Notes under the pieces: model-generated
Told to the model about the DNA's origin: nothing
The model's database searches: none
Seen by the model: only the letters and a program-made list of their open reading frames with translations
Program-made: the position numbers and the translations under genes
DNA from: Selaginella moellendorffii
Taxonomy: Eukaryota; Plantae; Lycopodiophyta
Length of the DNA stretch: 64,000 nt
Direction of reading: 5' to 3'
NCBI RefSeq assembly: GCF_000143415.4
Contig: NW_003314271.1
Location: 1,780,806 to 1,844,805 of the forward strand
Shown: positions 11,471-64,000 of the stretch, piece by piece
Position numbering within the stretch: position 1 is the stretch's first letter
Layout: each line of letters opens with the position of its first letter

Positions 11471-12625
11471 CTAATCAACGTCGGTCAATTCCTGGTCAAT
11501 CCAGATTCTCATCTTCTCCCACCTCTTGCGATCTGTGTAGAAGTCCCGGAAATCCCACGACTCATCGATCCATCCCCTGGAGATGGCGTGCAGCCTCGCC
11601 TGGCGCGCGTGAAAATTGAGTGCCTCGCGCAGTGGCCGGTGATTCGTGATGAATTTGAGCCTCGCCCCATCGATCGCCGCGAAAGAGAGCGCGGCGAGCT
11701 CTGGATCGTCGCTGCCGCTCCAATTCCCTCTCGACTCCGCCACCGAGACGAGCAGCCTGTCCCGGATCGATGGATCCAGCACGCGGCACACGATTTGATC
11801 GCGGCCGCCATCGCTGCTCTCCGGATCAACCAGGAAGCACAGATGGAGGCGATCGAAGCAGCACTCGATCGGCGAGAACAGCATCAGGCCATTGGCTGGA
11901 TCGTCGATGTCCTCCAATCCCATCACTGCCTGGGCGACGCGCGCCCACTCGTGCTTGAAGAGATGGGCGGCGATGAGGCTCCTAGCCGGGACGAGGCGAT
12001 CGACCGCTGGGCAGTAGAGCTTCTTATCGATCGTTGATCCACGCGAAAATCTCTTGTAGCCATAGGCCTCCAGCAGCCGGGCCCGGAAGCTCCGATTTCT
12101 TGGGGTTGCGATGAGCTTGCCCGATCCATAGGAGAGATTGACGCGATTGATCTTCATCTGGACCTCTGTGACATGAGAGATTGCTTCCAGCTTCGTGGCC
12201 AGTCGCTGGATCTTGTCCTCCATCTCCTGGATCTTGGCAATGGTGTCCCCTTGCTGTGATTCGAGCGTGCGGTGGAGCAATCCTCTCGTTTTGATCGATG
12301 GATTTGGGTCCTTGATGCTGCTGCTCTCGAGTGGAAATCCCAGCCCAATTGGGATAGAAACCGGCTCGATCTCAATCTCCTCGTGATTTCTCCGGATGGC
12401 ACTGGGGATCCCCTCGTGCTGAATTGGATGTTTGCGGTGGAATTCGATAGATTTGAAGCTCCTGGTAACTGGGAGGGAAGAAGATCGCGCGGGGCCCCTG
12501 TTTCTAGGGCTAGAACAGAGAACTGACGATTGAGCTCTCGATCTGGCGCTGCCGATTGCGAACGCGATCGCTGCTGGAGCTGGAAGGAATCGGGAATCCA
12601 GCGCCATGAGCTTGATCCACCGCAT
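11471..12625 (-). CDS. Intronless HNH endonuclease-domain protein (HNH_2/Crinkler-associated type) with a coiled-coil and a transit-peptide-like N-terminus
   Basis: C(P)AVD...AAHLFK...IDDPANGLMLFSPIECCFD...RPLREALNFHA; heptad segment IAKIQEMEDKIQRLATKLEAI; first ATG at 12625. Confidence 0.75.
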   Translation of the reverse strand: MRWIKLMALDSRFLPAPAAIAFAIGSARSRAQSSVLCSSPRNRGPARSSSLPVTRSFKSIEFHRKHPIQHEGIPSAIRRNHEEIEIEPVSIPIGLGFPLESSSIKDPNPSIKTRGLLHRTLESQQGDTIAKIQEMEDKIQRLATKLEAISHVTEVQMKINRVNLSYGSGKLIATPRNRSFRARLLEAYGYKRFSRGSTIDKKLYCPAVDRLVPARSLIAAHLFKHEWARVAQAVMGLEDIDDPANGLMLFSPIECCFDRLHLCFLVDPESSDGGRDQIVCRVLDPSIRDRLLVSVAESRGNWSGSDDPELAALSFAAIDGARLKFITNHRPLREALNFHARQARLHAISRGWIDESWDFRDFYTDRKRWEKMRIWIDQELTDVD

Positions 12626-12809
12626 TGTCACCTAGAGAGCCATCCTTTGATTCCTTCTCTTCTCTCTTCCGCGCGAATTGGAAGAAGCTTGAAGCATTCG
12701 AGATCCCAAGAGCTTTCATCTCAAGCTGCCACGTGTACGGTGGAAATTTTTAAAAATCCTTGCGAGGATATTCCGTCCTTCCAACGGGTAGGGTTTTAGG
12801 GCAGGAGCG

Positions 12810-26746: not shown

Positions 26747-28126
26747 ATGCTGGCATTGCTCTTGTTTTTTCTATCCCTGGATCTCTCGCTGGGGCAGTAT
26801 GATCACGCCAATGCCTATGGCGTTCCCGCGATTCTAATCTTCGGCGATTCCACCGTGGACGCAGGCAACAACAATGTGTTTAGCACGATCATGCACAGCA
26901 ATCACGCGCCCTATGGCCGCGATTTTGGATTCCCCACCGGGAGATTCAGCAATGGTCTGCTCGCGCCGGACATCGTCGGTGAGTTGACTATTCGTTGATT
27001 ATCGTGGACTGGCTCTTGACTGTGCTTGTTCTTGGAGAGATCTCGCAGCCCAGAAGCTCAATCTCCCATTCCCGCTCGCGTTCACTAGTCCGAATGCCAC
27101 CGGAGACAATCTCATCTTTGGAGCGAATTTCGCGTCGGCAGCGTCGGGGCTGGTCGATTCCACGGCTTCGTTGTTTGTAAGCTCGATCTCTCTCTTGTTT
27201 GCTATTGAAGCCATGGATCTTCCTTTTGCTAGAATGTGGCTTCGTCCACGCAGCAGCTCAAGTGGTTTGCGAGTTATCGGCAGCAATTGGAGCGGATAGC
27301 CGGGCCGGATCGCGCGCAATCGATCCTCTCCAGGGCGCTCTACGTGATAAGCTCCGGGAGCAACGATTATATCTACTATCGCCTCAACACTCGCCTCTCC
27401 TCGCAGTACAATAACGAGCAATTCCGGGAGCTCCTCATCAAGCAGACCTCGCAATTCATCCAGGTACGCGACTTCACTCCGATCCGGGCTAGTTTTCCAT
27501 TGCATTTCTCTTGGATTCTCGCAAATCTTCCATCAATCAATCTCTTTTTCTTCCCCCGCTTGGAATTTCACACGTTCCAAGAACAGCCTCACACAAATTT
27601 GCTCTTTGGAATCTCTCCAGGAGCTTTACAATGTCGGTGGGCGCCGATTTGCGGTAGTCTCAGTGCCTCCGCTGGGATGCTTGCCATCGGAGATCACAAC
27701 CGCGGGCAAACGCGATAGAAGCTGCGTGGAAGATCTCAATTCCAAGGCCGTCGCCCACAATGTCGCGCTCCAGCAGCTGCTCACGCGAACCAAGGCCTCA
27801 CTGCCGGGAACCAAGGTCGCATACCTCGACTGCTACAGCGTCCTCTTCGATGCCATCCACAATCCTGCGAAATACGGCAAGAATTCCACCCTTCTTTGCT
27901 CAAGAAGACTCAATCCCCTGTTTTTCTTCTTGCAGGGTTTAGCGAGACGAATCGAGGCTGCTGCGGCTCCGGATTGATCGAAGTGGGCGATCTCTGCAAT
28001 GGATTGTCGATGGGGACGTGCTCCGACTCCTCCAAATTCGTCTTCTGGGACAGCTTCCACCCGACGCAGGCAATGTATGGAATCATCGCCGAGGTGTTTT
28101 ACAACCAGGCCGCCGCGGTGCTCTAG
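26747..28126 (+). CDS. GDSL esterase/lipase
   Basis: Signal peptide; IFGDSTVDAGNNN, TGRFSNG, GANFASAASG, GSNDY, FVFWDSFHPT. Confidence 0.95.
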
Positions 28127-38870: not shown

Positions 38871-40164
38871 TGTGAGGGCCAAGTATACAGCTACAATGCC
38901 GTATACTAATATTAACATAATTATCAGATTGGTTTCAATTCGGACCACTTGTTTCTATATATAATTTAGGGTTTTTGGATTAATTTATATGCACATTTTC
39001 TAAATTCCCTTTCCATATTTCATGTCCGCACGAAGCAAGAGGCTTCAGAAATGAACACCAAATTGCATCACTGACTCAAATGGCCTTTGACAAAGACAAT
39101 GCAATTGTTGGAAGACATTATCACAATCGTCAATATATCCGAATGTGCATTTGAAAATGTCTGGAAAAACACTCTAATCCCTACGAATGGCTACACTCAA
39201 ACCATTGTACCATTGCAACACCGTCTCTTGGAGACACGTGGAAAACTCATGCAAACATCAAGCATCATCCCAAGAATAATATGTGGCAATCACCGTGAAG
39301 TGATCGAACTAATGGTACACATCATCCCCAAGGTTCCCAAGAAAGAACTCCGGCTGAACGTGAGGATTGGCACCAAGAGTAAGAAGAGTTGGACCATGTG
39401 CCATGAATGCCATCAACTGAGTTTGGTTGTTCAATTGCAAGCACATAGCATCAAACAATTGTACCAATTGCTACTCCAGAGTCAAAAGAAGAGATTGTTG
39501 ATCTGCCATGAAGATGAACAAAAAGGAAAGAGCAAAAAAAGAGAAATGACAAAAGCTAGAAGGAAAGGGAGATTTAGACAATGCAAAAAGCTATATCAAA
39601 ACCAAACTCTTGAAAAGAAAGAATAAAAGAAAGGAAATGGAAAAAGTTAAATCTAGACAATACAAAAGTTAAATCTAAACCAAAATCCCGAATCCAAGCA
39701 CTCCTCAGGGACAATCAAAAGTTGCCTCTCATCTCCACCAATATGAGTGCCGTATTAAGTGTTGCGGCAAATTGAACCACAAGTTTATGAGGTTTGGCAT
39801 GACATCTAGCAAGTCGATCCTCCAGAGATTATGCATGTGCAATGGTTAAAACATTTCATACCAAGGGATCAGGAGCAATTAATACCACCTATAGATCCGC
39901 TGATGCCTCCTCCTGATGTTCCTCTTGATCCCGGCCCATCTACAAAAGAACCTTGATAGTCTTCCATTATTCCGAGAGGAGGGAATGATGTGAGGGCCAA
40001 CTGTACAGCTATAATGCCATATATTAATATTAGCGTAGTGGGATTTTGGTAGCTATTGGATTGGTTTCAATCTAAACCACCCGCTCTTGTATATAAGTTA
40101 GGGTTTTTGGGTTAATTGATATGCACATTTTCTGAATTCCCTGTCCATATTCCATGCACTCACA
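38871..40164 (+). mobile_element. Short-LTR retrotransposon remnant: LTR-like (38871-~39030), ~950 bp internal region, PPT (39974-39988), LTR (39989-40164)
   Basis: Diverged direct repeats both starting TGTGAGGGCCAA; purine tract GAGAGGAGGGAATGA before the second copy, which ends CA; no TSD found. Confidence 0.65.
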
Positions 40165-41019
40165 GCATGGCTATAATGCCATATACTAATATTAGCATAG
40201 TGGGATAGATTAATTTCAATTCAGTGTATATAAGTTAAGATTTTTAGACTTATTGATATGCACATTTTTGTATTTCAATTCTATATTCCATACATTTACA
40301 TTGGTGGAGGTGAGGGGCAATTTTGATTGTCTCTAAGAAGTGCTTGGATTTAGGATTTTACTTTAAATCTAGCTTTCATATTATCCAGATTTCCTATTCC
40401 TTATAGCTAATTTCTTCTCTTTTATGTTTTTCCTTTTTGTTCATTTTCATAGTAGAGTAATAACATCTTCCTCTTTTGACTTTAGAGTAGTAATTAGTGC
40501 AATTGCTCGATGCTATACAATTATAGTTGAATAATCAAACTTAGTTAATGGTGGCATTCATGACATATGGTACAACTTTTCCTGCTTTTATTACCAATCC
40601 TCACATTTGGCCGGAGTTCTTCTGTGGGAATCCTAGGGATGATATATATCTTTAGTTTGATCACTTTACAATGAATGCCACATATCATTCTTGGGATGAT
40701 GCTTAGTGTTTGTGTGAGTGTCTTTAGGGGACAATGCTACAGTGGTATAATAGTTTGAGGGCAGCCATTCATGAGGATTAGAGCATTCTCCTAGATGTGT
40801 TCAAACATGCATTTGGACATACTGATAATTGTGATGATGCCTTTCAACAATTGTATCATCTTCGTCAAGGTCCATCTGAGTTAGTAATGCAATTTAGCAT
40901 TTGTTTCTGAAACCTCTTGCTTTGTGCAGAGACAAATATGTCAAAGCGGATCAAGTTGGCGTGATTTGTTATTTTAGCATTTACATTCTTAATATCGTTT
41001 TGAAAACAATCTTTTTTAT

Positions 41020-42075
41020 ACCGAGACCGAGACCAAGTCCAAGTTCGAATCCAAGTCCAAGTCCGAGTCCAAATACTAATACAGGCTATTGGGTGAAAGC
41101 CCAAAGTGATCATCCCCCAGGGGGGGATATAAGGGGTTCCAAAAGTATAGTAGGGAGAGTGTGGGGGTTTGACCCCCAGTGAAGCCAGTTTGGCCAGAAA
41201 AGTCTAGTTTGGCACAGAAAGGCCATATTCAGCTATTGGGTGACGGGATGACTACTGGGAAGTCCAAGACTAGAGTGAATACGGACCAGCAAGCGGGGTA
41301 GTTTGGTGAAGTGTTCAAGAGCCGGTTTTAGTTCCCTCGAGAGATCGAATGGTAGTCCAAGCGTGCGTGGCATTACCTACTTGGATACCTAGTGTGGCTC
41401 AATGGAACCTCACTCTAAGCCCATGGCTATAACACCCAAAGGCGGAAGGCGGGAAGAGTACCCACGAGGCTCGCACAGGGCCAACAGTGTTCCAAAATGT
41501 TGTCCCGGATGGTGGAAAGGAAGAGGAGTAGTCCTCTGGTATGGTGACCAAAGATGCAATTATATGACAAGGAAGTCCTAGAGAACTAGGGGCTTAGAGG
41601 TCAGGCTTGTGGGCCTTGATCCAATGGCAATGTTGGCAAACATGGTCATGAACAGAAAGGGACTTGGTAGGGACCGGAAAAGAGATATTGAGGAAGGTTA
41701 TTCCCTATGTCTGTAAGCATCCTAAGGATGCTAAGGAATGGATCTAGGATGATTACTCATGGATGGATGGCCTAGTCTTTGAGAGGCAAGACTGTGATGT
41801 AGGTGGTGTTAGACCACCAGTGTAACCAAGGTGAATAAGCATGGCTTTAGTGTAACGGGCTGATATGTTAGTGGTACCTTGGGGTGTTGACCATGGGATC
41901 GGACACATATAGCACTTGGACCAAGTGCAAAGGTTGAGTGGCATGGATGCCATTCTTGGGGATAGCAAGCCCCAAGTCCAGAATAGGACTTATGGAGGTT
42001 GTGAGTGAGACTCCTCCAAGTGGTCGGAGGTGTGGTTAAGTGACTAAAGTAGAATGAAAAATTTAGTTGCTTACA
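41020..42075 (+). mobile_element. Truncated, diverged LTR of the element C family in opposite orientation
   Basis: Ends GTTGCTTACA and aligns as reverse complement to the LTR starting at 48194; begins inside the GAGTCC/GAGACC repeat zone. Confidence 0.75.
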
Positions 42076-45000: not shown

Positions 45001-47670
45001 CGAGGCAAAGGATAACTATTTTTGACCATGATCTTATTAAGTGCCCGATAGTGAATACACATCCTCATAGTTCTATCCTTTTTCATAAAAAAATAGACCG
45101 ACACTTTATAGTGACTTGCATGGTCGGATATAACCTTTTTCAAGAAGCTTTGTGAGTTGCTTCTTGAGTTTAGCCATTTCCTTGATGTTCAAACAATACG
45201 AAGTTTTTGTAGGTGGTTTAGAACCCAAAATAACCTCAATCCGATGATCAACCTCACAGCTAGGAGGTAGCTCTGGTGACAATCCTTCGGAAAGATAAAT
45301 TAATTCCTCACCAACAACTTCGATATCTTCTTTGGTACAGAATCAATCCTATCACCAATTCGAACTAAGTCACCATCACCCTCAGCTTCCATTATTTAAA
45401 CCCAAAAGGTTCGACATCCCTTCTTAACTACATTTTGAGTGGCTCTTGCAGCCAAGAATTTAGCATCCCAATCCTTTGAGGAGTGCTTTTGCAATTGGAA
45501 GGACACATCAAGACATCCCTTTGACTTCAATGTGAACCATAAATCCTTTTAATATATTTGTTGAAGAAATCTATACCAAACACTATTTGAAAATCTGGTA
45601 TCTTCAACACTACTAAGTCCACTCTTTCTTTCCAGTTAAATATTTTTATTGGAACATCACTCACAAATTCTCTAGCTACTTGCCCACCTTCTGCAAACCA
45701 AAAGTGTATGGGTGACATCTACTCAGCTTTCAATCCGAACCACTTAACTAAGTCTTTGGATATGATGCTATGCATAGCTCCCATGTCAATCATCCCTCGG
45801 ATTCGGTGTTTGTGGACAAAGCCTACCAAATACATCAAAAGATCAATTTTTGCACTAACTGCAAGAAAAGCTTGAGGAAAGTAATGAAAGTAACTAACCT
45901 CCTCTTCCTCATAGTCTGCATTGATCAACTCGTCAACCCCTTCAACTTCACCACCATCGCCTTCCCTCATGACAGTAATACAAGACCTTGTATTATGCTT
46001 GTTGGGACATTCCGAAGACCTATGTTTTGATTCTTCATAATGGAAGCAATAACCCACACTACCCGTTCCACTAGGAGCAAGTTTCACAAGTTGTTGCTAC
46101 TTGTACCCACCAGGAGAAGGAATAGAGGGCCTAGGACCAGAAGAAGTTACTAGTGGTCACCAACCACCACCACCTTTATTAACCATTGCTTGTGACCCTT
46201 TAGGGCAAAACTTTCCTTCCACCCTTTGTTTCCGATCACCTTGTTTATTCCCAAAATTCTTATTCTTGTCCAAGGTACTAGCATATGGCTATTGATATTG
46301 TTCCATGAGCGAATGACTAAAGGCAACTTGCTGTGCTGCCTCCTTACACTCTATATACGTTTTTGGCTTAAATTTCAAAATCTCATTACGAGAAAGTTAA
46401 CTTAAACCTTCTAGAAAATAATTTCAAACATCTTTGTCACTCATATTTGCAATCATAATGTGATTCTAAGCAAATGCATTAACATAATGTATAAGGTCCC
46501 CTCGCTACTTTAATTGCCAAAACTCCATGCAAAGTCTCAGACCAAGATCATCCTATAAGTATTCCTTATGGATACAAGACCACATCTTGGTCCAACTTCT
46601 AGTCTGCCCTTTTTCAGCACACACTTGGTGCTACTAAGTTTTGGCATGATCGGTGAGAAAGGATTGCACACAGGCAACTTTCGTACGATCATCTACGTTT
46701 GCCGCTATAAAATAGTTTTCCATATCATAAACTCAATTTTCCAAAACCTGATAGTCCCGCATGCCTTTGGGTGGTTTTGAAGGCTTGAATTTTGAAACTC
46801 GTGCAATTGGGGGCGATTGCAAAACTTCATTGTCCTCAAAACTTGAAGAGAAGTTTGGTTGCTTAGGTTTAGCTACCTTAGCTTCTTTCTTCTTCTTTTT
46901 GTTCTCCTTTTTCAATCTATGAACTTCCCTTCACAAATTCTCAATCTCAACTTCTTGGGCTATACGCTGTAATGTTGTAGCATTTGGCTCTTCCTCTTCT
47001 GACTTAGCCTCAGCCTCTTCCATAGCATCTCTAGCAAGAGTTTCCTCCTCTTGATTCACCTATCTAGAGGTTTCAACGTCATCAACATGGTTCCTTTTCA
47101 CTATCTTACTAGTTACATGCATGCCTCTATTAGTAATTGAATATGCATACAACATTCTTACCGAATGTTTCAATCCAACTAGTCCTACACAAGTCACTTT
47201 GGATCTACTAGAAGAGTCTCTGCCTATGCAACTTGAGTAAAAAAATTTGACAAAAGTTGGATAGGAATCGTTGAGATAATTTTTTTGATACCAAATATAA
47301 TGCATCTAAATTTGAAGCTGAACTCCAAGCCCGTTGCACTACGAAACAAGGGTTCCGGCACAATCCCACGAGCACCAGCTTTCTATATGCAGCACTTGCA
47401 CGCAAAATGGTGTCAAACGGTGTCTGGCATAATTTTGGCATACTGGTCACCTAACATGAGGAGGAGGGTACCCCACCGACTAAAGTGGCATGGAGCTTAG
47501 GCTTAAACCCAAGTCGGATGTAAAACAAGGAGCAATATAACTCAATGGGAGCCAAATTAATATTTCAAGTGGTCGGACATGCATTCTAACCATTATCCTT
47601 ACTATACATTTGGAACCCCCCATATCCCCCCCGCCCCCCTCTTGAGGAACACATGTTTTAGGCTTTTACC
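42076..47670 (-). mobile_element. Element A: decayed chromovirus-type Ty3/gypsy retrotransposon (pseudogenised gag-pol)
   Basis: PBS remnant TGGTATCA at ~47286-47293; fragments of protease (MIDMGA), RT ([19 protein letters not shown]), RNase H (CDASGYAIGAVL), integrase and chromodomain ([15 protein letters not shown]), with many stops and frameshifts; partial 5' LTR ~47296-47670. Confidence 0.88.
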
Positions 47671-49196
47671 TTAAGCTTCCCTTAATACCAAGAGTTAATC
47701 ATTAAGATAAGCTTGAAACTTATTAAATATGGAATGTCCATAGATTGCGAATTTGGACACGGAACAAACACCATTGTGTTCAAGATAATCTCTATATTCT
47801 ATAAATATGCCAAATGAGCAAATCTAGATAGGGACTAGAATGAGATTAACACAAAGGGCATGATAGCGAGGGTGTTTGGCAAACATGGTAAGCTATGATC
47901 TAGTGATATTGAGGGATTAGTCTCAATACACAAGGGTTCTTGCCAAGCAAGTGCAAGACAAAGCAAAAAAAAATTAAAAGCCAGGTAGAAACACTTAGGA
48001 GTTCCTACCTTATGATCATCTGATTAAGTACAGATGCTAACCCCAATTTATTAACATTTGGACAAGAGGGGCTAATGATGGGAACCAGCAGTACCAATCT
48101 CTTGCCGTCATGGTAGTAAGGAAAGAGTATCCATAAGGACTGACCAACAAGTATCTTTTGATACCCAAAGTCACATTTGCGACACCTAGTATATGTAAGC
48201 GACTAATTTTTCCGTTCTACTTTAGTCACCTAACCACACCTCCAACCACTTAGAGGAGTCTCATTCACAACCTCCATAAGTCCAATTTAGGACTTGGGAC
48301 TTGCTAGCCCCAAGAATGGCATCCATGCCACTCCACACTTGCACCTGGTCCAAGTGCTCCACGTGTCTGGTCCCAAGACCGACACCCAAAGGTACCACTG
48401 ACATCTCGGCCCGTTACGCTAAGGCCATGCCCATTCACCTTTGCTGCACTAGTGATCCAATACCACTTGCATCACCATCCCGTCTCTCCAAGACTGGGCC
48501 ATCTGTCCACGAGTGGTCATCCTGGATCCACTCCTTAGCATCCTTAGGATGCCCACAGACCTGGGGAATTGCCTTCCCGAAAGTTCCTTTGTCAGTTCCT
48601 ACCAAGTCCCTTTCTGCCCCTAGCCGTGTTTGCCAACACTGCCATTGGATCGAGGCCCACAGGCCCGACCACTAAGTCCCATGGTCCTCTGGGACTTCTT
48701 CACCACACGACTGTGTCCTTGGTCACTACCCCAGAGGACTGCTCCTCTTCCTTTCCACAGTCTAGGCCTTTGGGACAACATTTCGGAACACCGTGGCCTT
48801 ACGCGAGCCACCTGGGTACTCTCCCCGCCTTTCGCCTTTAGGTGCTCTAGCCATGGGCTTAGAGCGAGGTTCCGTTGAGCCACGCCTGGTATCCAAGTAG
48901 GTAGTGCCACCCACACTTGGACTGGGAGCATCGGCCAGTCGATCTCCCGGGGGAACTAGAGCCGGCTCTTGAACACTTCACCAAGCTACCCCGCTTGTCG
49001 GTCCGTATTCACTCTAGTCTTGGACTTCCCAGTGGTCAGTTCATCACCCAACACTGGGTCTGGCCTTCCTGGGCCAAACTGGCCTTTCCTGGCCAAACTG
49101 GCTCCACTGCAGTCCTCCCCCTACTATACTTTTGGAGCTCACCAAACCCCCCAGGGTCTGGGAGACGAACGCTTTGGGCTTTCACCCTCTCAGGCT

Positions 49197-49735
49197 CCGG
49201 ACTCGGACTCGGACTCGGACTCGGACTCGGACTCGGGCTCGGACTCGGATTCGGACTCGGACTCGGTCTCGGTCTCGGTCCCGATCTCGGTCTCGCTCTC
49301 GGTCTCGGTCTCGGTCCCGGTCTCGGTCTCGACTTCGGACTCCATCTCGGACTCCATCTCGGACTCCATCTCGGACTCCATCTCGGGTCCATCTCGGACT
49401 CCATCTTGGACTCCATCTCGGGTCCATCTCGGACTCCATTTCGGGTCCATCTCGGACTCCATCTCGGGTCCATCTCGGACTCCACCTCAGACTCCAACTC
49501 GGGTCCATCTCGGGTCCACCTCGGACTCCACTTCGGACTCTATCTCGGGTCCATCTCGGGTCCACCTCGGACTCCACTTCGGACTCCATCTCGAACTCCA
49601 TCTCGGGTCCATCTCGGACTCCACTTCGGACTTCAACTCGGGTCCATCTCGGACTCCACTTCGGACTCCAACTCGGGTCCATCTCGGACTCCAACTCGGG
49701 TCCATCTCGGACTCCAACTCGAGTCCATCTCGGAC
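49197..49735. repeat. Tandem array in element C 3' LTR: (GGACTC/GGTCTC)n grading into (GGACTCCATCTC)n
   Basis: Seen directly; source of the spurious SDSD/GLGL/RTRT ORFs. Confidence 0.92.
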
Positions 49736-52700
49736 ACTCCCACGTGTCATGTGTTGGTCCTTTTGGGTCCCTTTTTGGAGCCTCGCTTTTTGCTCGCTTC
49801 GTGCTCGTTCCTCGAGCCCTTCTTTGGGAGTTCCACTCCCGCTCTTGACTTTTCAAGTCGGAGCTTTTGGTCCAACCGTGTTACGCTCGTTTGGCTCTCG
49901 CTTCAGCCACTACCACGTGGCACCCTTTCCGGCTCCACTTTGGGGGCTAGGGATTTTGTGTCTCACAACTCCACCACCCATAGACGAAGTTCGATGTCCT
50001 CATCGAACGGTAAACCCTTTCATAAAGTAACACCCACACGTGTTACCATTTCCATCCTTGGCACCTAGTCAATCTTTGTCTATGGTTTGACACCAAAGGC
50101 TCACCATGCCTTGTCCATCCTTTAAGGAGCGTAGTCTTTCCAACTTAGAGACTGATTGGACCACATGTAATGGTTCTCTCCTTTTATTGGTTTAGTGCTC
50201 GCTAAACCTCTTAGAGACCCTTCTCTAAGTCAATCCCACTACTCCTTCTCGAGTAGTCTCAATTTCCATCGATATAACCTCCGCACTTTGGAACTTTGAA
50301 GTTTGACTCCTTGGAGTCAATTTCCTAGGTGTCTCCGACACCTTGCCTTGCACCTTTTGTGCAACTCCACTTCCCTTCCTAGAAAGTTCTCTACTCGAGG
50401 GCACCATCATCCTCTCTTCTATTTCGTGCCAAAGTTCCAGTTATCATACTTTGTGCTAGGGCTGTTCATGGCCCTATCATTTGGCTACCTTACCGCTCCC
50501 TCCCTTGGAGCTTCCACTTTTGCCAAACCGGAGCATTTCGGAATCCCTCCTTGGAAACACACTTCCTTTCCCGCAACTTGTTAGCGTCCAACACATTAGT
50601 GTTCCTCGCCTAACTTTGTCACTTGGATTCCCCCCAAGGGATTCCACGGCCCTATCTTGGCCACTCATCTTTTGCTCCTATCCATTGATTGTTGCACCAA
50701 GCAACATCGAATCTCTACCTCCCTCCTTGAGGTATTGTTTCGGTTCCATAGCAAAGACTCTTCTTTGCCAAGTCCGGAGGATGTTCACCCCTAGTACGTC
50801 TCTTTAGCATCTTCTGCTATGGGCTCTATCCACGGCACAACTTCGTGACCCTCCCATGGGTCTTTTATAGAGACTACTTTCCTCGGACTCACTATGCCAT
50901 CTCACGGACATAGTTTATTCCCCTTAGGTGCTCTTCCCACTTGGTTATCACGACCAAGCCACATCACCTTAAACAGTTCAATTTCAACATTTTGAACCAG
51001 GAACTTCATTCCTTAGCCAACCAAGGACCTTGTCCTTATCTGGCCATAAGATCACCTAGTGATCTCACCTTGGCACCTTAACAGAGTTGCCAAGAGGTAC
51101 TTGGTCTTCTAGACCTCCAAGTTGTTGACTATAACCCCGGGGGCATCCCCCACACTTGGCGGTGCACCCAAGCTAGCCCTTACGGCCAAGGGTTCATAGC
51201 AACTGAGATTAGGTGTCCCCATCTCACTCACCACGACCTTGGTGCCACTTGCACCAAAGCGTTCAAGTTAGATATGCTGAGCTTTCACACTAAGCAATCT
51301 AAACGTGCATCACGACTCCGAGGCATCCCTCGCTTGGCGGTGTGCCCAAACCAGTCTCCCCACTGAGAGTCCATGACCACCGAAATATGAGTGTCCTCAT
51401 ATTCCAAACCATCACCACGCCCTAGTGATTTGGGACTCGAACCCAAGCACTAGAGGGTCGGGACTCGAACCCAACCTCCGTATATGCATCTACAGACGGC
51501 ATCACACTAGATGCCTGGCGTGACTCCCCACGCCGGTGCACCAACCTATTTTTAAAGTGCGCTACAGATCACAGCTTAGGAACCTAGTTCCTCCACACTG
51601 CCAAGTCCTCTCACTTGACATGTCTGTGATCATGCATGGACTCCTCCATGCTCGGCCCCATGGCCCACCCCTTTTGAAGTTATCACCTTCAACTAGGGTC
51701 TTTGTTCCCCCGACGTGCCAATCTCACTTGGCAAGTCCTCCGACCATTGTAACATGGTTCCTGCATAAGCGTGAAAGTCCTTGACCATCGACTTTTGTTC
51801 AAAGCCCTCTCTTTGAACACTCGGGAACTACTTCCCTAACCTTGATAACCTTGCCTCATGGCAAGCTTCAAGACCACGCTTCTGCTGCGCCACTCTGATT
51901 TCGCGCGTTCCATAAACCATTTACACTTGGCCTTTCTAGGTACTACGCTACCTAGAATCGTCTTTGGGAACCTTGAAGGAACTCTGTCCCTCAGCTTGCT
52001 AAGGCCTCCCCTTTCGCAAGCTTTATAGTTGCCATATAGTCTAACATGGACAATTCCATATTTTAGACTCTCCATGGCATCACGGTTGCTAGCAACAACA
52101 TCCTCGAGCACCCTCTTGCTTCTCCACTCCCAACTTTCATAACCACTGTTGGATATGTCCTTTGATTTCTATGGTTCAATTCCATCCCAATACTACTTGC
52201 CTTTGGCTTCACACCTTTCCTTCGGTCATTCTCCTCCAGACCAGGAGGATAGCTTTGCACTTTCTATCATGCCTTAGCAAGTATTCTTAGGGATGAACCT
52301 ACCCAATAGCCCAGGGAGTGGTTCCTCAATCCGGGTATGCTCAGCTTATAATCCCACACACTGGGATTACATTGTTGCTTATGGGCCTTTACATGCCCAT
52401 CACTAGCCTTGCCAAAATTCCATTTTTGGCTTTGTCCAACTCGGGTAGACAGTCCTCTCCTGTCTCCGCAACCTTGGACATTTGGATAGCACCTTCTATC
52501 CATCATTCGCTAGGGACTTAGTCCCTTGGGCTTTATCCATTGCCCTCGCGACATTAAACACCACCTTCTGGTGTTCTAGAGTGTTCGGGTGTCCCAATGA
52601 TGGCTTTCTTGACAATGAGTATTTCCTTTTATGACATTGACTTACTATATCGCAACATAAGCAGCTTATCCCCCGTAAGGGTATATCCGACTTCCCTATA

Positions 52701-55020
52701 TTAGAAGTCTTGGGTAGCTACCTTCTACCCGTTTAACCAGTTATTTTGCACCTCTTGCTTAGTTGCCTCATAGTTGTCAAGTCCTACAACTCATTGCTTG
52801 GTGCTTGCACACCTCCATCATTATCTGGGTCACCGCACTCCAACTGCATGCTCTGCCGCTTAGGCTATGCCATTCCCATTTCCATTGGAATTCCTTTGGC
52901 AAGGGGTTCTTATGAACCCACCAACATAGCCTCAAGGTATCACACCTTGGCACATTTGGTGTCTCCACACCATCAACTCCACGAGCCTACCTCTATGACA
53001 CTTCCCCTTCGTGTTTAAGTCTTTGCCAAGACCAACACCGCTCTTTCTCATGCCAACCATCCGTTAGCACTACACCATAGAGGTCACACACAACTTTGTG
53101 TCAAAGTTGTTTTCTTCTGGGAACACCTTTCCCATAACTTTAGCATGGCACATTTTGCCATTGATGAGATACTCTTTGTTCTCATCCTTGGATTCTATGA
53201 TCCCCCCCCATCCTTTGTGGGGTACAACTCACCTCAGTCCAAATGCTTCTATCAGTCCTTTTAGGACCATCCCTTGACTCTACTTGAGTCATCTAGCAGT
53301 TTTGGACTTGGTTAATCCACCGACCCGTAAGGTCCTACTTGTGAGGCACTAGCTCACCGGAATACAATTCTTGCATTCCTGTCCTACTCAAAAGGACTAT
53401 TTTCACAAGTGTTACTCTGACACTTGATTTTGTTCTCTGGGGCCAAACTTTGCCCCTTAGGACTACTTGTCCATGTGATGAGAATACCAACTCATCCACT
53501 TAATACACCCCCAACTCCTTGGGTTGTTCCAGGATTTATTAGAGGTAGCCCCGGCTACCATTTCGAGGACTCGTGTCCTCATCCATACTTGACCTCTCAC
53601 GGTCATCCATTCCGGTCTCACCTTCATGAGCACCAGCCTCCACCATGTGAGGATAAACTTGTGACTCCTTTATTGTTTTTGGAGTCTCTATCTTCCCCGT
53701 GATCCCAACTATAGTTGTTTACCCCAACTACATTAGCCCGTTTGCTGAGTCAAACGCTCATCTGGATCACCTCCTCAACTCAATGAGGAAAACCTTGCAC
53801 TGTTCCCAAGATCCCAAAGTCGTTCCATTATTGGCCCCTTTTCTATCCACCACCTTGTCTACAAGTTCACACATGAACTGTAATGGAGAGCCATGTCTTC
53901 CCGACCTGCTACTCCTCAAGGATAGGCCCACTTCTCGGACCTTCCATTACCAACACCAGTGGTGATATACTTGAGCACCAATAAAAGTCGGACGAAGGAA
54001 TAGCTCCGATACCAAGTTGTAAGCGACTAATTTTTCCGTTCTACTTTAGTCACCTAACCACACCTCCAACCACTTAGAGGAGTCTCATTCACAACCTCCA
54101 TAAGTCCAATTTAGGACTTGGGACTTGCTAGCCCCAAGAATGGCATCCATGCCACTCCACACTTGCACCTGGTCCAAGTGCTCCACGTGTCTGGTCCCAA
54201 GACCGACACCCAAAGGTACCACTGACATCTCGGCCCGTTACGCTAAGGCCATGCCCATTCACCTTTGCTGCACTAGTGATCCAATACCACTTGCATCACC
54301 ATCCCGTCTCTCCAAGACTGGGCCATCTGTCCACGAGTGGTCATCCTGGATCCACTCCTTAGCATCCTTAGGATGCCCACAGACCTGGGGAATTGCCTTC
54401 CCGAAAGTTCCTTTGTCAGTTCCTACCAAGTCCCTTTCTGCCCCTAGCCGTGTTTGCCAACACTGCCATTGGATCGAGGCCCACAGGCCCGACCACTAAG
54501 TCCCATGGTCCTCTGGGACTTCTTCACCACACGACTGTGTCCTTGGTCACTACCCCAGAGGACTGCTCCTCTTCCTTTCCACAGTCTAGGCCTTTGGGAC
54601 AACATTTCGGAACACCGTGGCCTTACGCGAGCCACCTGGGTACTCTCCCCGCCTTTCGCCTTTAGGTGCTCTAGCCATGGGCTTAGAGCGAGGTTCCGTT
54701 GAGCCACGCCTGGTATCCAAGTAGGTAGTGCCACCCACACTTGGACTGGGAGCATCGGCCAGTCGATCTCCCGGGGGAACTAGAGCCGGCTCTTGAACAC
54801 TTCACCAAGCTACCCCGCTTGTCGGTCCGTATTCACTCTAGTCTTGGACTTCCCAGTGGTCAGTTCATCACCCAACACTGGGTCTGGCCTTCCTGGGCCA
54901 AACTGGCCTTTCCTGGCCAAACTGGCTCCACTGCAGTCCTCCCCCTACTATACTTTTGGAGCTCACCAAACCCCCCAGGGTCTGGGAGACGAACGCTTTG
55001 GGCTTTCACCCTCTCAGGCT

Positions 55021-55588
55021 CCGGACTCGGACTCGGACTCGGACTCGGACTCGGACTCGGACTCGGACTCGGATTCGGACTCGGACTCGGGCTCGGGCTC
55101 GGTCTCGGCCTCGGCCTCGGTCTCGGTCTCGGTCCCGATCTCGGTCTCGCTCTCGGTCTCGGTCTCGGTCCCGGTCTCGGTCTCGACTTCGGACTCCATC
55201 TCGGACTCCATCTCGGACTCCATCTTGGACTCCATCTCGGGTCCATCTCGGACTCCATTTCGGGTCCATCTCGGGTCCATCTCGGACTCCATCTCGGACT
55301 CCATCTCGGACTCCATCTCGGGTCCATCTCGGACTCCATCTCGGACTCCATCTCGGGTCCATCTCGGACTCCACCTCAGACTCCAACTCGGGTCCATCTC
55401 GGGTCCACCTCGGACTCCACTTCGGACTCTATCTCGGGTCCATCTCGGGTCCACCTCGGACTCCACTTCGGACTCCACTTCGGACTTCAACTCGGGTCCA
55501 TCTCGGACTCCACTTCGGACTTCAACTCGGGTCCATCTCGGACTCCAACTCGGGTCCATCTCGGACTCCAACTCGAGTCCATCTCGGA
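55021..55588. repeat. Same tandem array in element C 5' LTR with different unit counts
   Basis: Seen directly; LTR lengths are 1804 vs 1774 bp. Confidence 0.92.
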
Positions 55589-57811
55589 CACTCCCACGTG
55601 TCATGTGTTGGTCCTTTTGGGTCCCTTTTTGGAGCCTCGCTTTTTGCTCGCTTCGTGCTCGTTCCTCGAGCCCTTCTTTGGGAGTTCCACTCCCGCTCTT
55701 GACTTTTCAAGTCGGAGCTTTTGGTCCAACCGTGTTACGCTCGTTTGGCTCTCGCTTCAGCCACTACCACGTGGCACCCTTTCCGGCTCCACTTTGGGGG
55801 CTAGGGATTTTGTGTCTCACAGTATATATACAATTGCATTTGGTGTGAAACTCATAATACTCCCCCTCATGCTGCGGAAAGACGGTTAGAGTTAATTGCA
55901 ATTGCTTATTCATTTGAGTTGGTGATGTTTGATTTAATAAGGCCTTTTTCACAGTTGACTATTAGCAATGAGTATGTAATTATTGCTTTTGACTACTTGA
56001 CTCATTGGGTGGAAGTTGATGCTCTTACTAGTGCATCTACAACTGCTATTAGATACTTCCTCCTCAATTGAGTAGTGTTTTAGCATTCATGTGCGGAATG
56101 AATTCTTTCGGATAATAGTCCCACATTTATGGCTAAGGCTTTTCACATTTTAACATCTCTGTTGGGGATACGTCACACTTTCATAAGTACTTATCATCCA
56201 CAATTAGATAGTTTGGTGGAATAGCTCATTCAAACCTTCAAAGGGATGATTGCAAAGTATTGTAAGCCACAAATTTTTCCTTTCCAATTTGCCAGCTTAC
56301 CTCGCCTATCCGACCAACTCCGCCTTGGCTTGTGCTAAGTTCCCTCGCCAAGGTTCTCGCCTATGGTGCCAGCTCCTACTTGGTTTCAACTACTTACTGC
56401 ACGAGCAACGGAGTGTTAGCCATCCATCTACGGATTCCCAAATCTCTCCCAATCCCCCTCCCCGGGTTAGACTGGACTTAAGGTTCGGCTACACTCCCCG
56501 CAGGCACAAGCAGCCAAGCACACCAAGCCTCCAGATTCCTAACACCCCAAGGTATCACAAGGCTTGATCATGGGACCCTCTAAATCCCAAGCCTTGGGTG
56601 CAGCACTTGCTTCGGGACGTCGGGGTGAAACACCGTGGCCTAACGGCCCGGTATGGGTACCTCTACCCCCCCTCTTCCATCCCGAAGGAAAGGCCCAAGC
56701 CCCCGGAAGGGCGAGGACCAATGAGCCACAAGGTACTCAAGTGGGGCACCACTCCACCTGAGCCGGGAGCACCGCAATCGGTTTCCCTTTCGGGAGTGGG
56801 AGCTGCTCTTGAGCACTTCCTTGGATGGCCCCTCCGGCACCAGCCAAGTCCATGCTCACTCCCACCCAAGGCCCCTCGGTCCCAGTCCCAACCTCAAGTC
56901 GGTTTGGAAGCCCAACTGGAGAGTCCCTTCTAAACTGGTTCCTGGACCTCACTATCCCTACTATACTTTTGGAACCCCCTGCAGCCCCCCCCCCCTGGGA
57001 GACGCACGCTTTGGGCTTTCACCCCTTGACCCGTATTAGTATTTGGACTTAGTCTCTGGCTCGATCTCGGACCCGATTTCGGATCCGACTTCGGATTCGG
57101 GTTCGGACTCGATCACGGACTTGATCTCGGACCCGATCTCGGACCCGACCTCGGACTCGACCTCGGACTCGGTCTCGGACCCGATTTCGGATCCGGACTC
57201 CGTCTCGAACTCGGTCTCGAACTCGGACTCGAACTCGGTCCCCGAGTCGGTCTCGGATTCGATTCCGGACTCTACCTCGAACTCGGTCCTAGAGTCGGTC
57301 TTGGACTCGATCCTCGACTTGGTCCCATCCGATGAACTCTTTGTCACTTCGGTCAAGCTTTTGGGGATCCTTTAGCCTACGACATCTCGGGGAGTCGGTT
57401 CCTTACAACTCCACCACCCATAGAAGAAGTTCGATGCCCACATCGAACGTCTCGTTTTATCCTACAACTTGTTGTCCATGTCTCCGGGGGCATCCCCCCA
57501 CTTAGCGGTGTGCCTAAGTTAGCCTCCCCGGCCAAGAGCCCATGACAACGGAATATAGGTGTCCCTATATTCCTCACCTCACCACGCCCTAGTATAGGGT
57601 CGGGACTTGAACCCAGCCTTGCTTTACTAGGGGGTTGGGACTCGAACCCAACCTCCGTAGAATACGTCTACGGATTCGACATCCCCGCAGGGAGTCGGGC
57701 GTAGTGCCCTACGCCTGGTCGACCTATCCAACCCATGCTAATTAGCTTACCTTTGGCGCGCCTTCGGGTCCCAACATATGCCATTTGCTCAACTTTGCAA
57801 ATTGATATTTT

Positions 57812-60800
57812 TTAATTGAATTTTGCATAAGTACATAAAGTTCTGCCTTGCAGAAATTCCTCCACTAGATCTCGTGCGTTCGCTAGGTTCTCCTCCGGTT
57901 CCCATGTTGCTTCGCAGTGTGGAAATCCTTTCCACTTCACATGGAACTCTCTCACCTCGCGTCCTTGTCGCTTGCTCTTGCGCGCATTGAGGATGGCCTC
58001 GACTTCGTATTCCTCTTCCCCTTGGATAACCTCAGGTAAAGGTCTCACTTGGTCCTTGCGAAGCGGATCCTCAAAGTACGGCTTGAGTAAGTTCACGTGG
58101 AACACTGGGTGCATCTTCCCCATCTCTCGAGGAAGTCGGAGTCGGTAAGCCACTTTACCGATTCGTGCCTCAATTTCATAAGGCCCCGCGAACCTGCTTA
58201 AGGAACTCAAGATCAATTCATTTACAGGAATACATGCGTCTTTACCTTTGGGTCAACTTTCGGCTGATCCAGCTTGGTAGTCTGAGGTTCTTGGTGTTCA
58301 GCCACACCTTCTCCCCAGCTTGGAACTCCACATCCCGACGCTTTTGGTTCGCGTACTTAGTTTGCCTTTGTTGAGCCCGTTCCAAGGAATCCCTCACTAG
58401 ATTCCAAATGTTGAGTCTTTCCGCCGTGAATGCCTCCACTGCGGGTAACTCTCCATGATACTCGGCCACGCCGAGTTCCACAGGACCTTCAATAGCTCGC
58501 CCATTGATGACTTCCCATGGACTCACCCCGATGCTTGAGTGTGGTGAGTTGTTATAACACATTTCCGCAAGTCCCAAATGACTTACCCAGTCGGTCTGGT
58601 CTCCCGAGACATAGCATCGCAAATAATCCTCCAGCTGCCTATTCACCCTTTCCGTTTGTCCGTCTGTCAAGAAGTGTTAGTGCCATCAATCTTGACTTAA
58701 TACCCATTACCTGTCTGTGGGTGATAGGCTGTGCTGAATTTCAATTTGGTGCGATACTGTTCTAGGAGTGTCCTCCAGAACCTACTAGTGAAGATCTTAT
58801 CTCGATCTGAGATAATCTCTTCCGGCCTTCCCCGCACTCGAACCACTTGTTCAAAGAACAGCTTCGCCACACCTTCCGCATCCACGTCCGTTGTGGTGGG
58901 TATGAAATGTGCCATCTTTGAAAATCGGTCCACCACCACGAATATCGCATCAAACCCCTCGCTTGGGGGTAGTCCCGTGATGAAGTCCATCGTAAGACAT
59001 TTCCACGGGCGATCTGGAATTGGGATGCTTTGCAACAAGCCCCCACTAGCCTTAGTCACGGCTTTGACCTGCTGACATGTTGGACATGTCTTTACATAGT
59101 CTTTGACGTCCTTAGCCATATCTGGCCAATGGTACTTCCTCTTGAGTAAGCCCATCGTCTTGGGCACTCCGCCGTGTCCCGCAAGAGGTCCGTCATGACA
59201 CTCTTCTAAGGCCACCTTCCTTAGTTCCCCTTCTGGAACATACACCCTCGTTTGCTTGTAATAAATGAGTCCGTTGCGTTCCGCATAGCCCGTTTTCTCT
59301 TCCGTTGGCAGCTCACCTCTCTGGTGAGCTTCCCGCGCCTCTAGATTCCTCAGCAACACTTCTTGTGCTAGACCATCGTTCTCATATGCTGTCCGCACAT
59401 CGTCCCAGAAGGTTGCTGTTGCGCTGGATATTGCCAACTTCAAGCTCGCTTTTCGACTTAGCGCATCCGCCACGATGTTGCTCTTCCCAGGCTTGTACAG
59501 AATTTCGCAATCAAACTCGGCCAAGGCATTGGCCCACCGACCTTGTTTCCCTCTTAGGTCGGGCTGTGACAAGAAGTGTTTCGTTGCCACATTGTCCGTG
59601 TAAACCTTGAAGTGTCTCCCAAGGTAGTGTCGCCACTCCTTGAGTGCCTTGACCACCGCAAACAATTCCTTCTCATGGGCAGGCCACTTCCGTTGAGCCT
59701 TGTCCAGCTTCTTCGAGAAGAACGCTACCGGATGGTTGTCTTGCTTCAGAACTGCGCCCAACGCAAAGTCCGAAGCATCCGTTTCTACCTCAAAGTCCTT
59801 ACCAAAGTCTGGCAATGCCAATACGGGAGCCTTCCTCAACTTCCCTTTGAGGTGGACGAATGCCGCCTCGCATTCTGCTGTCCATACCATCTTCCCTTTT
59901 CCTGTTTGGTCCGTTAAGGGCAGGGCTACTCTCGAATAGTGTCTGATAAACTTTCGATAGTAGTTGCATAGCCCCAGGAACGCCCTCAACTCATGTACAT
60001 TCGATGGTCGCTCCCATTCCTGGATCGCTTGGACCTTCTCCGGGTCCACCTTGAGCCCGTCTTGGCCCACCACATGCCCGAGAAACTTTACCTCTTGTTG
60101 AGCAAAGTCACATTTGCTCTCTTTAGCATATAGCTTGTGTTCCCTTAGTTTCTCAAACACCTTCGCCAAGTGTTCGGCATGCTCTTCTAGCGTCTCGCTA
60201 TAGATCAGGATGTCGTCGATATAGACGACCACGAAGTGATCCAGATAGGGTACAAAGACGTGGTTCATTAGCGCCGAAAACGTTGCCGGCGCATTACATA
60301 GCCCGAAGGGCATCACCAGAAACTCAAAGCTCCCATACCTCGTTCGACAGGTTGTCTTCTCGACATCTTCCTCGGCTACCCTGATCTGGTAGTATCCTGA
60401 CCTTAGGTCAATCCTCGAGAAGTATTTTGCCTTTCCCAACCTATCGAACAGGTCCTCAATCCTAGGCAAAGGGTACTTGTTCTTCTTTGTATACTTGTTG
60501 AGCAAGCGGTAGTCTATGCACATGCGCATAGATCCATCTTTCTTTTTCACAAATAACACGGGCGCCCCATACGGCGACTTGCTCAACCTAACATACCCTT
60601 TGTCCACCAACTCCTCTAGTTGGCACTTGAGCTCCTTGAGTTCTTTTTCGTTCAAACGATAAGGGGGACGAACCACTGCCTCAGCACCCTCGACCAGCTC
60701 AATCTTATGTTCTATTGGTCGTGCTGGGGGCAGCCCCGCCGGTAGCTCCTCCGGCATGGTATCCTGGAATTGGTCCAACACCCGCTGGATCACTAAAGGC

Positions 60801-62584
60801 ACTTCTTCCGTTCTTGTCTTTTTGTCACTCTTCACCGAGAGTAAGCACAAAAAGGCTGCCTTAGTTCCTTTAGTGAGTTGTCCTCTCGTGGACACCAGGT
60901 TTAAGCAGGATTCTTTGGCCTTGCTTTGCCCTACCTTTAGATCCTGGGCTTCCACCCTAGATCTTCTTCCTTGGGCATTCGCCAGTACCACAAGGTTCCT
61001 ACCTTGTCCATGTAGGGCTACCACGAACCGATTGAACCAATCCATTCCGAAGATCACGTCAAATCCCGCCATGTCCAACACGGTGAAATCCATGTCTACC
61101 TTCCATGTCCCTACTTCGACTTTCGCTTGTCGAAGTACCTCATCGGTGCTTTGGCTACCTTGAACAAACTCTATAGTCCTTGGTTCGCCTAGCCGCTGCA
61201 CCGTTAGTCCGGCTTGCCGGACTATGTCTGCAGCCACAAAATTATCCGAAGCACCCGTGTCAATAAGGATCTTAACAAAGCTACCTCCGAGCTTCCCTCG
61301 GAGGGCTAGTAGATGTCGCGAACGACTCTCTACCAAAGTTGCTCGTGTAATGAGTAACTTTGAGTTAGGGACTGGATCACATACCTCATTTTGGACTTCG
61401 CCCGACTTGATGGCCATATTGGCTCTGGCCTTCTTCGGGTAGGGACATTCCCTCGAAAAGTGTCCCGCTTCACCGCAGTTATAGCATACGTTGTTTCCCA
61501 CGCTGCTATATGACTTGACCTTCTTATCCGTGGGTTTGTCTCTTTTCGCTTGACTCCCCCACGTACTTGCTCGCTGGCCACCGGATTTGCCTTTCCGAAA
61601 TCCCGAGGACTCATTCTTAGAGAAACTCTTCCTGAATTTCCCCCTGCTATATGTTCCCCTCGGTTTGGCCCCTTTGTGAAACGTGGATCCCGACCCCGTC
61701 GTGTTCCCCTTTCGCAGGTTATCGTTGAAATGCACCTTGATGGCCGCATCCAACGCTTCCTTGTAGTTGGTCGGGTTCCAGCGCATCACCTCACCGCGAG
61801 CCCAGGTTTGCAAACCTGATATAAAGGCATGGAACGCATCCATATCCCCCATGTCCGTGACAAGTATCCTCTTTGCCATGAACCCATTCACATATTCCTG
61901 GATGGTTCCAGTCTGCTTCAGCCTACTCAGCTCATCTCTCAGATGCAGAGTGGCATTCGGAGGAACGTATGTCGCGCGGATCCTCGCCTTCATCATGTCC
62001 CAGGTGGCCACCGGTCCTTCGTTGGCCTCCGTTGTTCTCCACCAAGACTTGGCATTATCTGCCAAGTATGGTTTTGCACATGGGACCTTCTCCGAGCTCG
62101 GTAACCGTAACGCTCGGAAGTAGTCCTCCATATCGTAAAACCAATCCTCCACAACCTTATAGTCGTTCACTCCCTTGAACACCGGTGGGGGCTTTGGTTT
62201 GTACTTGGGAACTGCCTGAGGGACTGATTCCACTTCGGTCTGTTCGACCTTGTCTGGTTTTGCCTCAGTCCCTGCCGAAGGGTCCGCACCTTCTGCGCTG
62301 CCAGCATCCGCAGTCTTTCGCCTTTTCTTCCGTTTCTCGTCACGCTTTAGCTTGCGTACGAGAGTCTCCAGCAGGGCATTGGTCTGCGCCAATTGACCTT
62401 CTAGAACGTCCAATCGAGCCTTGGACGACCGAACCTCGCCACCGGACTCCTGTTTGGAAGTTTCCTCACTAGAGTCCTCCTCATGCAAGGATTCCTCATC
62501 CATAGCCTCTTGTTCGACCGGAGGCTCCAGCTCTGGCGGAGGTTCTGTCTCCGCCTGGGTTCGCTTACGCCCTGCCCTTGCCAT
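57812..62584 (-). CDS. Element B Gag-PR-RT-RH-IN-chromodomain polyprotein, predicted spliced (exons 62584-58711, 58663-58246, 58193-57812)
   Basis: [14 protein letters not shown] knuckle, [44 protein letters not shown]|[13 protein letters not shown]|FAGPY, chromodomain [22 protein letters not shown]. Confidence 0.9.
58194..58245 (-). other. 52-nt GT-AG intron immediately upstream of the integrase GPY/F motif of element B
   Basis: CAAAG|GTAAAG...TAAGCAG|GTTCGCG; removal restores [12 protein letters not shown]; carries an in-frame TAA. Confidence 0.85.
58664..58710 (-). other. 47-nt GT-AG intron in the integrase catalytic core of element B
   Basis: ACAG|GTAATG...CACTAAC...TTGACAG|ACGGA; removal restores [12 protein letters not shown]; carries an in-frame TAA. 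Confidence 0.85.
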
Positions 62585-64000
62585 CTCCCAGCAATCCGCC
62601 TCTATCCTTCGCTAGAACTGAGGAGAAGGCTCCGATACCAAATTGTAAGCCACAAATTTTTCCTTTCCAATTTGCCAGCTTACCTCGCCTATCCGACCAA
62701 CTCCGCCTTGGCTTGTGCTAAGTTCCCTCGCCAAGGTTCTCGCCTATGGTGCCAGCTCCTACTTGGTTTCAACTACTTACTGCACGAGCAACGGAGTGTT
62801 AGCCATCCATCTACGGATTCCCAAATCTCTCCCAATCCCCCTCCCCGGGTTAGACTGGACTTAAGGTTCGGCTACACTCCCCGCAGGCACAAGCAGCCAA
62901 GCACACCAAGCCTCCAGATTCCTAACACCCCAAGGTATCACAAGGCTTGATCATGGGACCCTCTAAATCCCAAGCCTTGGGTGCAGCACTTGCTTCGGGA
63001 CGTCGGGGCGAAACACCGTGGCCTAACGGCCCGGTATGGGTACCTCTACCCCCCCTCTTCCATCCCGAAGGAAAGGCCCAAGCCCCCGGAAGGGCGAGGA
63101 CCAATGAGCCACAAGGTACTCAAGTGGGGCACCACTCCACCTGAGCCGGGAGCACCGCAATCGGTTTCCCTTTCGGGAGTGGGAGCTGCTCTTGAGCACT
63201 TCCTTGGATGGCCCCTCCGGCACCAGCCAAGTCCATGCTCACTCCCACCCAAGGCCCCTCGGTCCCAGTCCCAACCTCAAGTCGGTTTGGAAGCCCAACT
63301 GGAGAGTCCCTTCTAAACTGGTTCCTGGACCTCACTATCCCTACTATACTTTTGGAACCCCCTGCAGCCCCCCCCCCCCTGGGAGACGCACGCTTTGGGC
63401 TTTCACCCCTTGACCCGTATTAGTATTTGGACTTAGTCTCTGGCTCGATCTCGGACCCGATTTCGGATCCGACTTCGGATTCGGGTTCGGACTCGATCAC
63501 GGACTTGATCTCGGACCCGATCTCGGACCCGACCTCGGACTCGACCTCGGACTCGGTCTCGGACCCGATTTCGGATCCGGACTCCGTCTCGAACTCGGTC
63601 TCGAACTCGGACTCGAACTCGGTCCCCGAGTCGGTCTCGGATTCGATTCCGGACTCTACCTCGAACTCGGTCCTAGAGTCGGTCTTGGACTCGATCCTCG
63701 ACTTGGTCCCATCCGATGAACTCTTTGTCACTTCGGTCAAGCTTTTGGGGATCCTTTAGCCTACGACATCTCGGGGAGTCGGTTCCTTACAAGTATATGG
63801 ACTTTCAACATTTAGATTAGGATGGTTATTTGCCTTTTCTTCGGTATATGTATGTCACAAGGGTGTAAAGTTTTGTTAATGCTTCACCATATAAACTCCT
63901 ATATGGTTATAATTCAATATTACTAATGGAATTAAGTTTACCTTTGCAATTGCCACAAGCTACCGATGCTAAATCTTAGAATTAATATTTGACAAGCATT

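Follow-up and report, generated by a model that had tools for sequence, protein, structure and literature searches.

In a stretch of 64,000 nucleotides from Selaginella moellendorffii, here called the window, we have analyzed a copy of the chromovirus family SM1-Galahad, termed element B, in which the integrase is split by two spliceosomal introns. These introns have likely been kept because the spliced messages also lose their primer-binding site (PBS), so that only unspliced RNA would be copied. SM1-Galahad itself is known; its expression scheme with four introns, of which the leader intron is likely, is real and had not been read before.

Architecture of element B and sequence of its integrase introns

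Element B spans positions 63792-56259 on the minus strand, 7534 nt in total (Table 1), and is a Ty3/gypsy chromovirus by its Gag-PR-RT-RH-INT order, its C-terminal chromodomain, its LTRs, PBS and polypurine tract and its target site duplication (TSD) of 5 bp. The earlier note had described near-identical LTRs and an intact TSD, and this holds: the LTRs of 1151 and 1150 nt differ by one mismatch and one indel, with G tracts of G12 and G11, the TSD is ATACT, and both PBS and polypurine tract were found. Past the HPQT motif ORF1 runs four codons into integrase intron 1 and then stops, and the SH3-like domain and the chromodomain are encoded downstream of it in another frame, the middle ORF having 318 nt and the chromodomain ORF 309 nt (103 aa). 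The LTRs hold tandem arrays of 6- and 12-nt units of the GAGTCC and GAGACC type (57014-57357 and 63398-63740). Note also that the 5' LTR has one more possible short intron, a GTAAGT..CATAG stretch of about 37 nt (62742-62778, minus strand) whose last 9 nt repeat the exon end before the leader donor.

Table 1. Features of element B, with the predicted counterpart of the protease intron in element A (positions in the window)
Feature	Position	Strand	Remarks
5' LTR	62642..63792	-	1151 nt, TG..CA, G12 tract; leader-intron donor inside
Likely leader intron, 66 nt	62618..62683	-	GTAAGC..CCTCAG; one contig
Primer-binding site, tRNA-Met type	62627..62641	-	tRNA type as in PMC3350952
ORF1, 1295 aa, 3885 nt	58697..62584	-	Gag, zinc knuckle, protease, RT, RNase H, integrase to HPQT
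Alternative protease intron, 157 nt	61228..61384	-	GTATGT..CTGCAG; covers protease active site
Integrase intron 1, 47 nt	58664..58710	-	GTAATG..GACAG, CTAAC motif; between second catalytic Asp and Glu
Integrase exon 2, 418 nt	58246..58663	-	bears catalytic Glu
Integrase intron 2, 52 nt	58194..58245	-	GTAAAG..AAGCAG; immediately before GPY/F motif
Integrase exon 3	57812..58193	-	SH3-like domain, group I chromodomain, final stop
Polypurine tract	57409..57425	-	
3' LTR	56259..57408	-	1150 nt; TSD ATACT adjoins
Element A, predicted counterpart of protease intron	45754..45898	-	145 nt, phase-0 GT donor

The assignment to SM1-Galahad is a match to the published description of the family rather than to its consensus sequence. 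PMC3350952 describes an element of 7.5 kb with LTRs of more than 1 kb, G tracts of 11-25, a tRNA-Met PBS and an ORF of 3885 bp (1295 aa) followed by two short ORFs of 316 and 309 bp, the latter with a group I chromodomain given as 113 aa; the family has hundreds of copies, several of which went into the consensus, and the authors found no intact one. Introns and splicing are not mentioned in the main text of that paper, nor are introns in its supplement. Since the published consensus has the same broken three-ORF layout, this layout is family-wide and has previously not been read as splicing, so that the family described as having no intact copy presents itself here as one whose three ORFs are exons of a single gene.

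The earlier note had placed inserts of 47 and 52 nt with GT-AG ends on the minus strand, and we could confirm both at the positions listed in Table 1. Their removal yields one frame of 1557 codons with a single terminal stop, in which D1260..E1296 has the canonical 35-residue spacing of D,D(35)E and the chromodomain is intact. The region contains 360 GT..AG segments of 30-120 nt, none of which opens the frame when removed singly, and among the 66 pairs of removals that do open it only the pair proposed in the earlier note restores both conserved motifs. With GT..AG ends, a branch-like motif and a GC content of 0.38 (intron 1) and 0.37 (intron 2) against about 0.50 in the flanking exons, both inserts fit what would be expected of U2-type spliceosomal introns. 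Their size had also been said to match that of host introns, and this stands in part: a GDSL gene in the window has four introns of 56-157 nt and an open frame, whereas the 47- and 52-nt introns of a kinesin gene are candidates only, its gene model not being closed. The U content of the element B introns is 0.30-0.33 versus 0.34-0.41 in the GDSL introns. The GDSL lipase gene has a GC-AG intron of 59 nt (27877-27935, plus strand) whose removal leaves the frame open. Elsewhere, amid plant genes, an open frame of 386 codons encodes an HNH_2 endonuclease domain (11471-12631, minus strand).

Boundary repeats of 5 and 4 nt at the two integrase introns resemble a TSD but follow largely from the AG/GT context; they may hint at duplication upon insertion and prove nothing. 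None of the repeat families found within the window falls in either intron. A hairpin in intron 1 that might dampen splicing was considered and rejected, as it is not significant by itself (z of -1.26, and -2.11 with flanks), and the copy in run X7, which alters one stem base with no compensation, counts against it as well; intron 2 showed no hairpin (z of 0.70 and -0.19).

Splicing in RNA-like contigs and retention in DNA contigs

Eight of 24 listed sequencing runs were compared, all of them as contigs rather than reads and with the type, RNA or DNA, guessed for each. The number of contigs aligned per run was 1-16 in the RNA-like runs and 10,778-65,356 in the DNA runs. Record 17 of X3, with a length of 2500 nt, and record 15 of X4 each skip both integrase introns exactly within one contig, and the expressed copies differ from the locus in the window by 6 letters in 2500. 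As X3 and X4 are two samples of one study, the splicing of intron 2 is evidenced by that study only, while intron 1 is also skipped in a contig from X19, a second study, with 30 letters on the short side of the joint; intron-1 skipping is thus seen in two studies and intron-2 skipping in one. In X18 the alignment of record 11 ends at 58711. Unspliced forms are found as well: X19 also yielded a more diverged contig that keeps intron 1 and a contig of depth 2 that keeps intron 2, and a contig from X6, a third study, retains intron 1.

In the DNA run X2, none of 10,778 contigs on 58110-58800 skips either integrase intron, with all 7 joints listed, and depth is high across both; in X7 one contig of 656 nt reads through both introns, and neither intron is affected by the 15 listed of at least 89 joints in X1. 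Note that contigs drop rare variants, so that they speak for presence and not for absence, and rare intronless copies are possible. Both inserts are therefore introns: RNA-like runs have forms that lack them, and genomic copies retain them. With run types guessed, the contigs show exact removal from RNA and presence in DNA. The earlier note had asked for spliced junctions, for inserts not private to one copy and for a family not mostly intronless, and all three were found, the second through the published consensus as well as through the X2 depth and the X7 contig. Its claim that active integrase depends on splicing is likewise supported, as the catalytic Glu and the chromodomain can be encoded only once both introns have been spliced from the RNA. 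Frameshifting or read-through as a route to repair the integrase was rejected, as the inserts are absent from RNA-like contigs.

The reading frame that is created by splicing is under selection, as judged from sequence variants. The set analyzed comprises the best-supported 40 of 144 rows, of which 27 lie in exons 2-3, past the stop of ORF1. In the spliced frame 19 of these 27 are synonymous against 8.5 expected (p 4e-5, a guide only, as the variants share ancestry), while the other two frames give 4 and 6. In the X7 copy, changes affect 8 of 99 intron bases versus 10 of 554 exon bases (p 0.0025), and nine of the ten exon changes are synonymous, with GT, AG and CTAAC kept. Intron changes across the variants mostly spare the same three motifs, and common variants shift the donor of intron 1 toward GTATG or GTAAG. 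One variant class at 58195, which accounts for about 16% of the X2 depth there, changes the AG at the end of intron 2. A second AG lies 3 nt upstream of it in frame (AAG, a tandem acceptor), and copies with this change might still splice, with one extra codon.

A second kind of splicing affects the protease. Record 18 of X3 skips 61384-61228 exactly and the alignment of X6 record 26 ends at 61227; no X3 contig covers the protease intron. Its removal shifts the frame and leads to a stop at 401 aa, just past the zinc knuckle, so that the spliced RNA holds a 401-codon frame for Gag only. In element A, as in B, a GT and an AG have the same phases, and the AG lies 34 nt past the catalytic Asp codon and is followed by a stop at the second codon; the acceptor-plus-stop layout was present in 0 of the 11 loci, among 83 distant relatives, where the motif was found. 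The integrase introns had been proposed to tune the stoichiometry of a single-frame gag-pol, a role that is not needed, since the 157-nt protease intron explains an excess of Gag more simply. Of the proposal that splicing gates the integrase, the splicing of the introns and their family-wide presence stand, and the role in stoichiometry is not supported.

The likely leader intron contains the entire PBS together with the final 42 nt of the LTR, and its acceptor is present only at the 5' LTR. Record 19 of X3 shows no differences to element B up to 62619 and then continues in a loose end of 110 nt, the product expected from removing 62683-62618; its first 30 letters, compared by eye, match LTR positions 62686-62715 at 25 of 30, and the contig comes from a copy with a slightly different LTR (5 of 30 letters differ). 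Seen once, the 66-nt joint likely removes LTR end and PBS. All four joints, leader, protease and the two in the integrase, fall on GT..AG. The integrase joints share no contig with the leader joint or with a protease intron that is kept, and the message for the 1557-aa Gag-Pol was not seen as one contig. In standard LTR replication, an RNA that lacks the PBS and the end of U5 cannot be primed, and leader-spliced RNA would for this reason serve as message only. The earlier note, which had missed this likely intron, had invoked selective packaging of unspliced RNA, which it also supposed would be translated into a truncated integrase; the leader joint likely provides an alternative to such packaging.

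Relatives and origin of the introns

Element A, at about 47600-42300 on the minus strand, is decayed, with many stops and frameshifts, and both integrase sites are uninterrupted in it, in agreement with the earlier note. In a tree of integrase alone, with 56 rows that carry no clade labels and comprise both elements, 26 selected proteins and roughly one third of 83 loci, element A is the sister of element B with a support of 98/95, on a long branch, and the two form a branch of their own at an open fork. In the 83 related loci, with identities of 42-54%, an intron-sized insert was found in 0 of 76 measurable cases at site 1 and in 0 of 40 at site 2. Three of four gaps between HSPs in these loci were inspected, and proved to be two simple linker frameshifts and one degraded stretch. 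An unbroken site-1 motif is present in 112 of 120 homologous proteins, to which we give little weight as many are gene models that would hide introns. PMC3350952 places the SM1-Galahad family with Galadriel elements and describes the sister family SM2-Galahad with a single unbroken ORF of 1577 aa. With element A, SM2-Galahad and the other relatives lacking the inserts, the simplest reading is that the introns were probably gained on the SM1 branch.

Further repeats lie in this part of the window. Element C (48194-55821, minus strand) has LTRs of about 1.8 kb that are 96% alike and a PBS and polypurine tract like those of B; no match to the element B ORFs was obtained by tblastn, and it looks like a large non-coding partner element. 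Its LTR end has GT donors and its PBS is followed by an AG (54053 to 53970), which possibly mark the same leader intron, and its LTRs hold tandem arrays of the GAGTCC and GAGACC type (49162-49735 and 54980-55599) whose length differs between the two. An inverted copy of a C-type LTR, 82% identical, adjoins element A at 41020-42075. An inverted repeat of about 2 kb (39006-40950), with arms of about 560 nt that are 75% alike, lies upstream of a VHS/TOM1-like gene and is possibly an old foldback element.

Retention of the introns and comparison with known systems

That LTR elements move through RNA is classically proven by their loss of introns. For a family that nonetheless keeps its introns, we propose three classes of RNA. 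Unspliced RNA would be the template for reverse transcription, a Gag message would have leader and protease introns removed, and a Gag-Pol message would retain the protease intron and lose both integrase introns, to encode 1557 aa. Splicing would have to be near all-or-none for each molecule, or the template would come from a separate pool, because an RNA with the PBS but lacking an integrase intron would seed intronless copies, of which none was seen. The integrase introns were probably gained on the SM1-Galahad branch and tolerated since this split of RNA roles was already in place. In its full form, the proposal is of a four-intron LTR retrotransposon in which splicing sets the fate of the RNA and each message destroys its own copyability, so that host-type introns could invade and become fixed in the integrase core of a high-copy family, and we favor this by a modest measure.

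The introns could also be real with the template drawn from a separate RNA pool, set apart by another start site or processing, unspliced, R-containing and packaged, and with the leader joint incidental. BARE1 is such a case, with distinct pools for translation and replication (PMC3735527), and a separate pool would explain the all-or-none retention without coupling between introns and agrees with the unspliced contigs in X6 and X19; we nonetheless regard it as unlikely, as the leader joint has consensus-like ends and cuts out exactly the LTR end and the PBS, and note that the two mechanisms can coexist. If, instead, selection acted on copies and not on the choice of template, intronless copies would arise and be lost or silenced, because a pol message with introns would be better exported, better translated or less exposed to RNA silencing. 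In plants, introns are known to lessen such silencing, and the conserved splice signals, together with the common variants that push the intron-1 donor toward GTATG or GTAAG, speak for such an effect. Silenced intronless insertions should still be visible in DNA, however, and their absence from 10,778 contigs makes this explanation improbable.

Two further readings carry even less weight. The family might be integrase-dead and moved in trans by SM2-Galahad or another relative, with the splicing cryptic and functionless. A related family with an unbroken ORF and hundreds of copies is reported from the same genome in PMC3350952, and the full Gag-Pol message was not observed. The synonymous excess past the stop in exactly the spliced frame, the exact restoration of D,D(35)E and the intact chromodomain render this very improbable. 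That the skipping contigs stem not from RNA but from an intronless, processed copy in the DNA of those samples is hardly credible: the run type is a guess, but the skipping runs have 1-16 contigs against 10,778-65,356 in the DNA runs, all four joints fall on GT..AG, and X2 shows neither integrase joint.

If true, the four-intron reading would be a natural case of intron gain and of retention through reverse transcription, with splicing all-or-none per molecule. In a high-copy family whose integrase can be built only after the removal of two introns that are nonetheless inherited, the choice of template becomes directly testable: a single long read can phase all four junctions. The intron gain is datable, and the same genome has a sister family that lacks the introns. 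A family filed as lacking an intact copy can be intact, so that ORF-based surveys may miss such elements, and the control of Gag through a protease intron is extended from Copia to a chromovirus.

The comparison with known systems draws on the accessible portions of the papers cited. A review from 2025 (PMC12786077) describes plant LTR elements as generally free of introns and names only Ogre and EVADE as notable exceptions. In the literature searched, which does not extend to most subscription journals or Repbase, no intron inside the integrase core of an LTR element is reported, and the four-intron layout is not described in the accessible parts of PMC2864245, PMC12130899, PMC9804982, PMC12477816, PMC8226300, PMC10085805, PMC7175516 and PMC10309623. 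Ogre, BARE1 and Penelope may nevertheless be taken as precedents for the logic of intron retention and of a split in RNA roles.

Similar in its working is the legume Ty3/gypsy element Ogre, where translation of the whole polyprotein requires that a subset of the transcripts first lose an intron by splicing (PMC6317226). Like element B, Ogre is a Gypsy element that retains an intron whose removal completes the polyprotein, but it belongs to the non-chromovirus OTA clade and has one intron between protease and RT, while element B has two short introns in the integrase core and C-terminus. With PR and RT in one frame and a chromodomain present, element B is not an Ogre member and is similar in its working only. 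BARE1 and EVADE, both Ty1/copia elements, resemble element B in an alternative intron at the start of the protease that shifts the frame and gives a Gag-only message, and in BARE1 the spliced forms are absent from genomic DNA (PMC3735527). There spliced RNA is barred by a second promoter and the R region, whereas for element B we predict removal of the PBS, and in neither copia element is the removal of an intron needed to complete the integrase. In Arabidopsis Gypsy elements, such conserved splicing was not seen in PMC5580714. Penelope-like elements (PMC8557442) also keep spliceosomal introns after retrotransposition, but they have no LTR-type replication and no DDE integrase, and the mechanism of retention is described as unknown. 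In the foamy virus, which makes Pol from a spliced message (PMC7828637), and in the cerv gene of Cer1 (PMC10309623), a spliced message yields a needed protein and the unspliced RNA is the genome, as we suggest for element B; these are, however, large subgenomic splices or accessory genes, with no short intron in the integrase domain.
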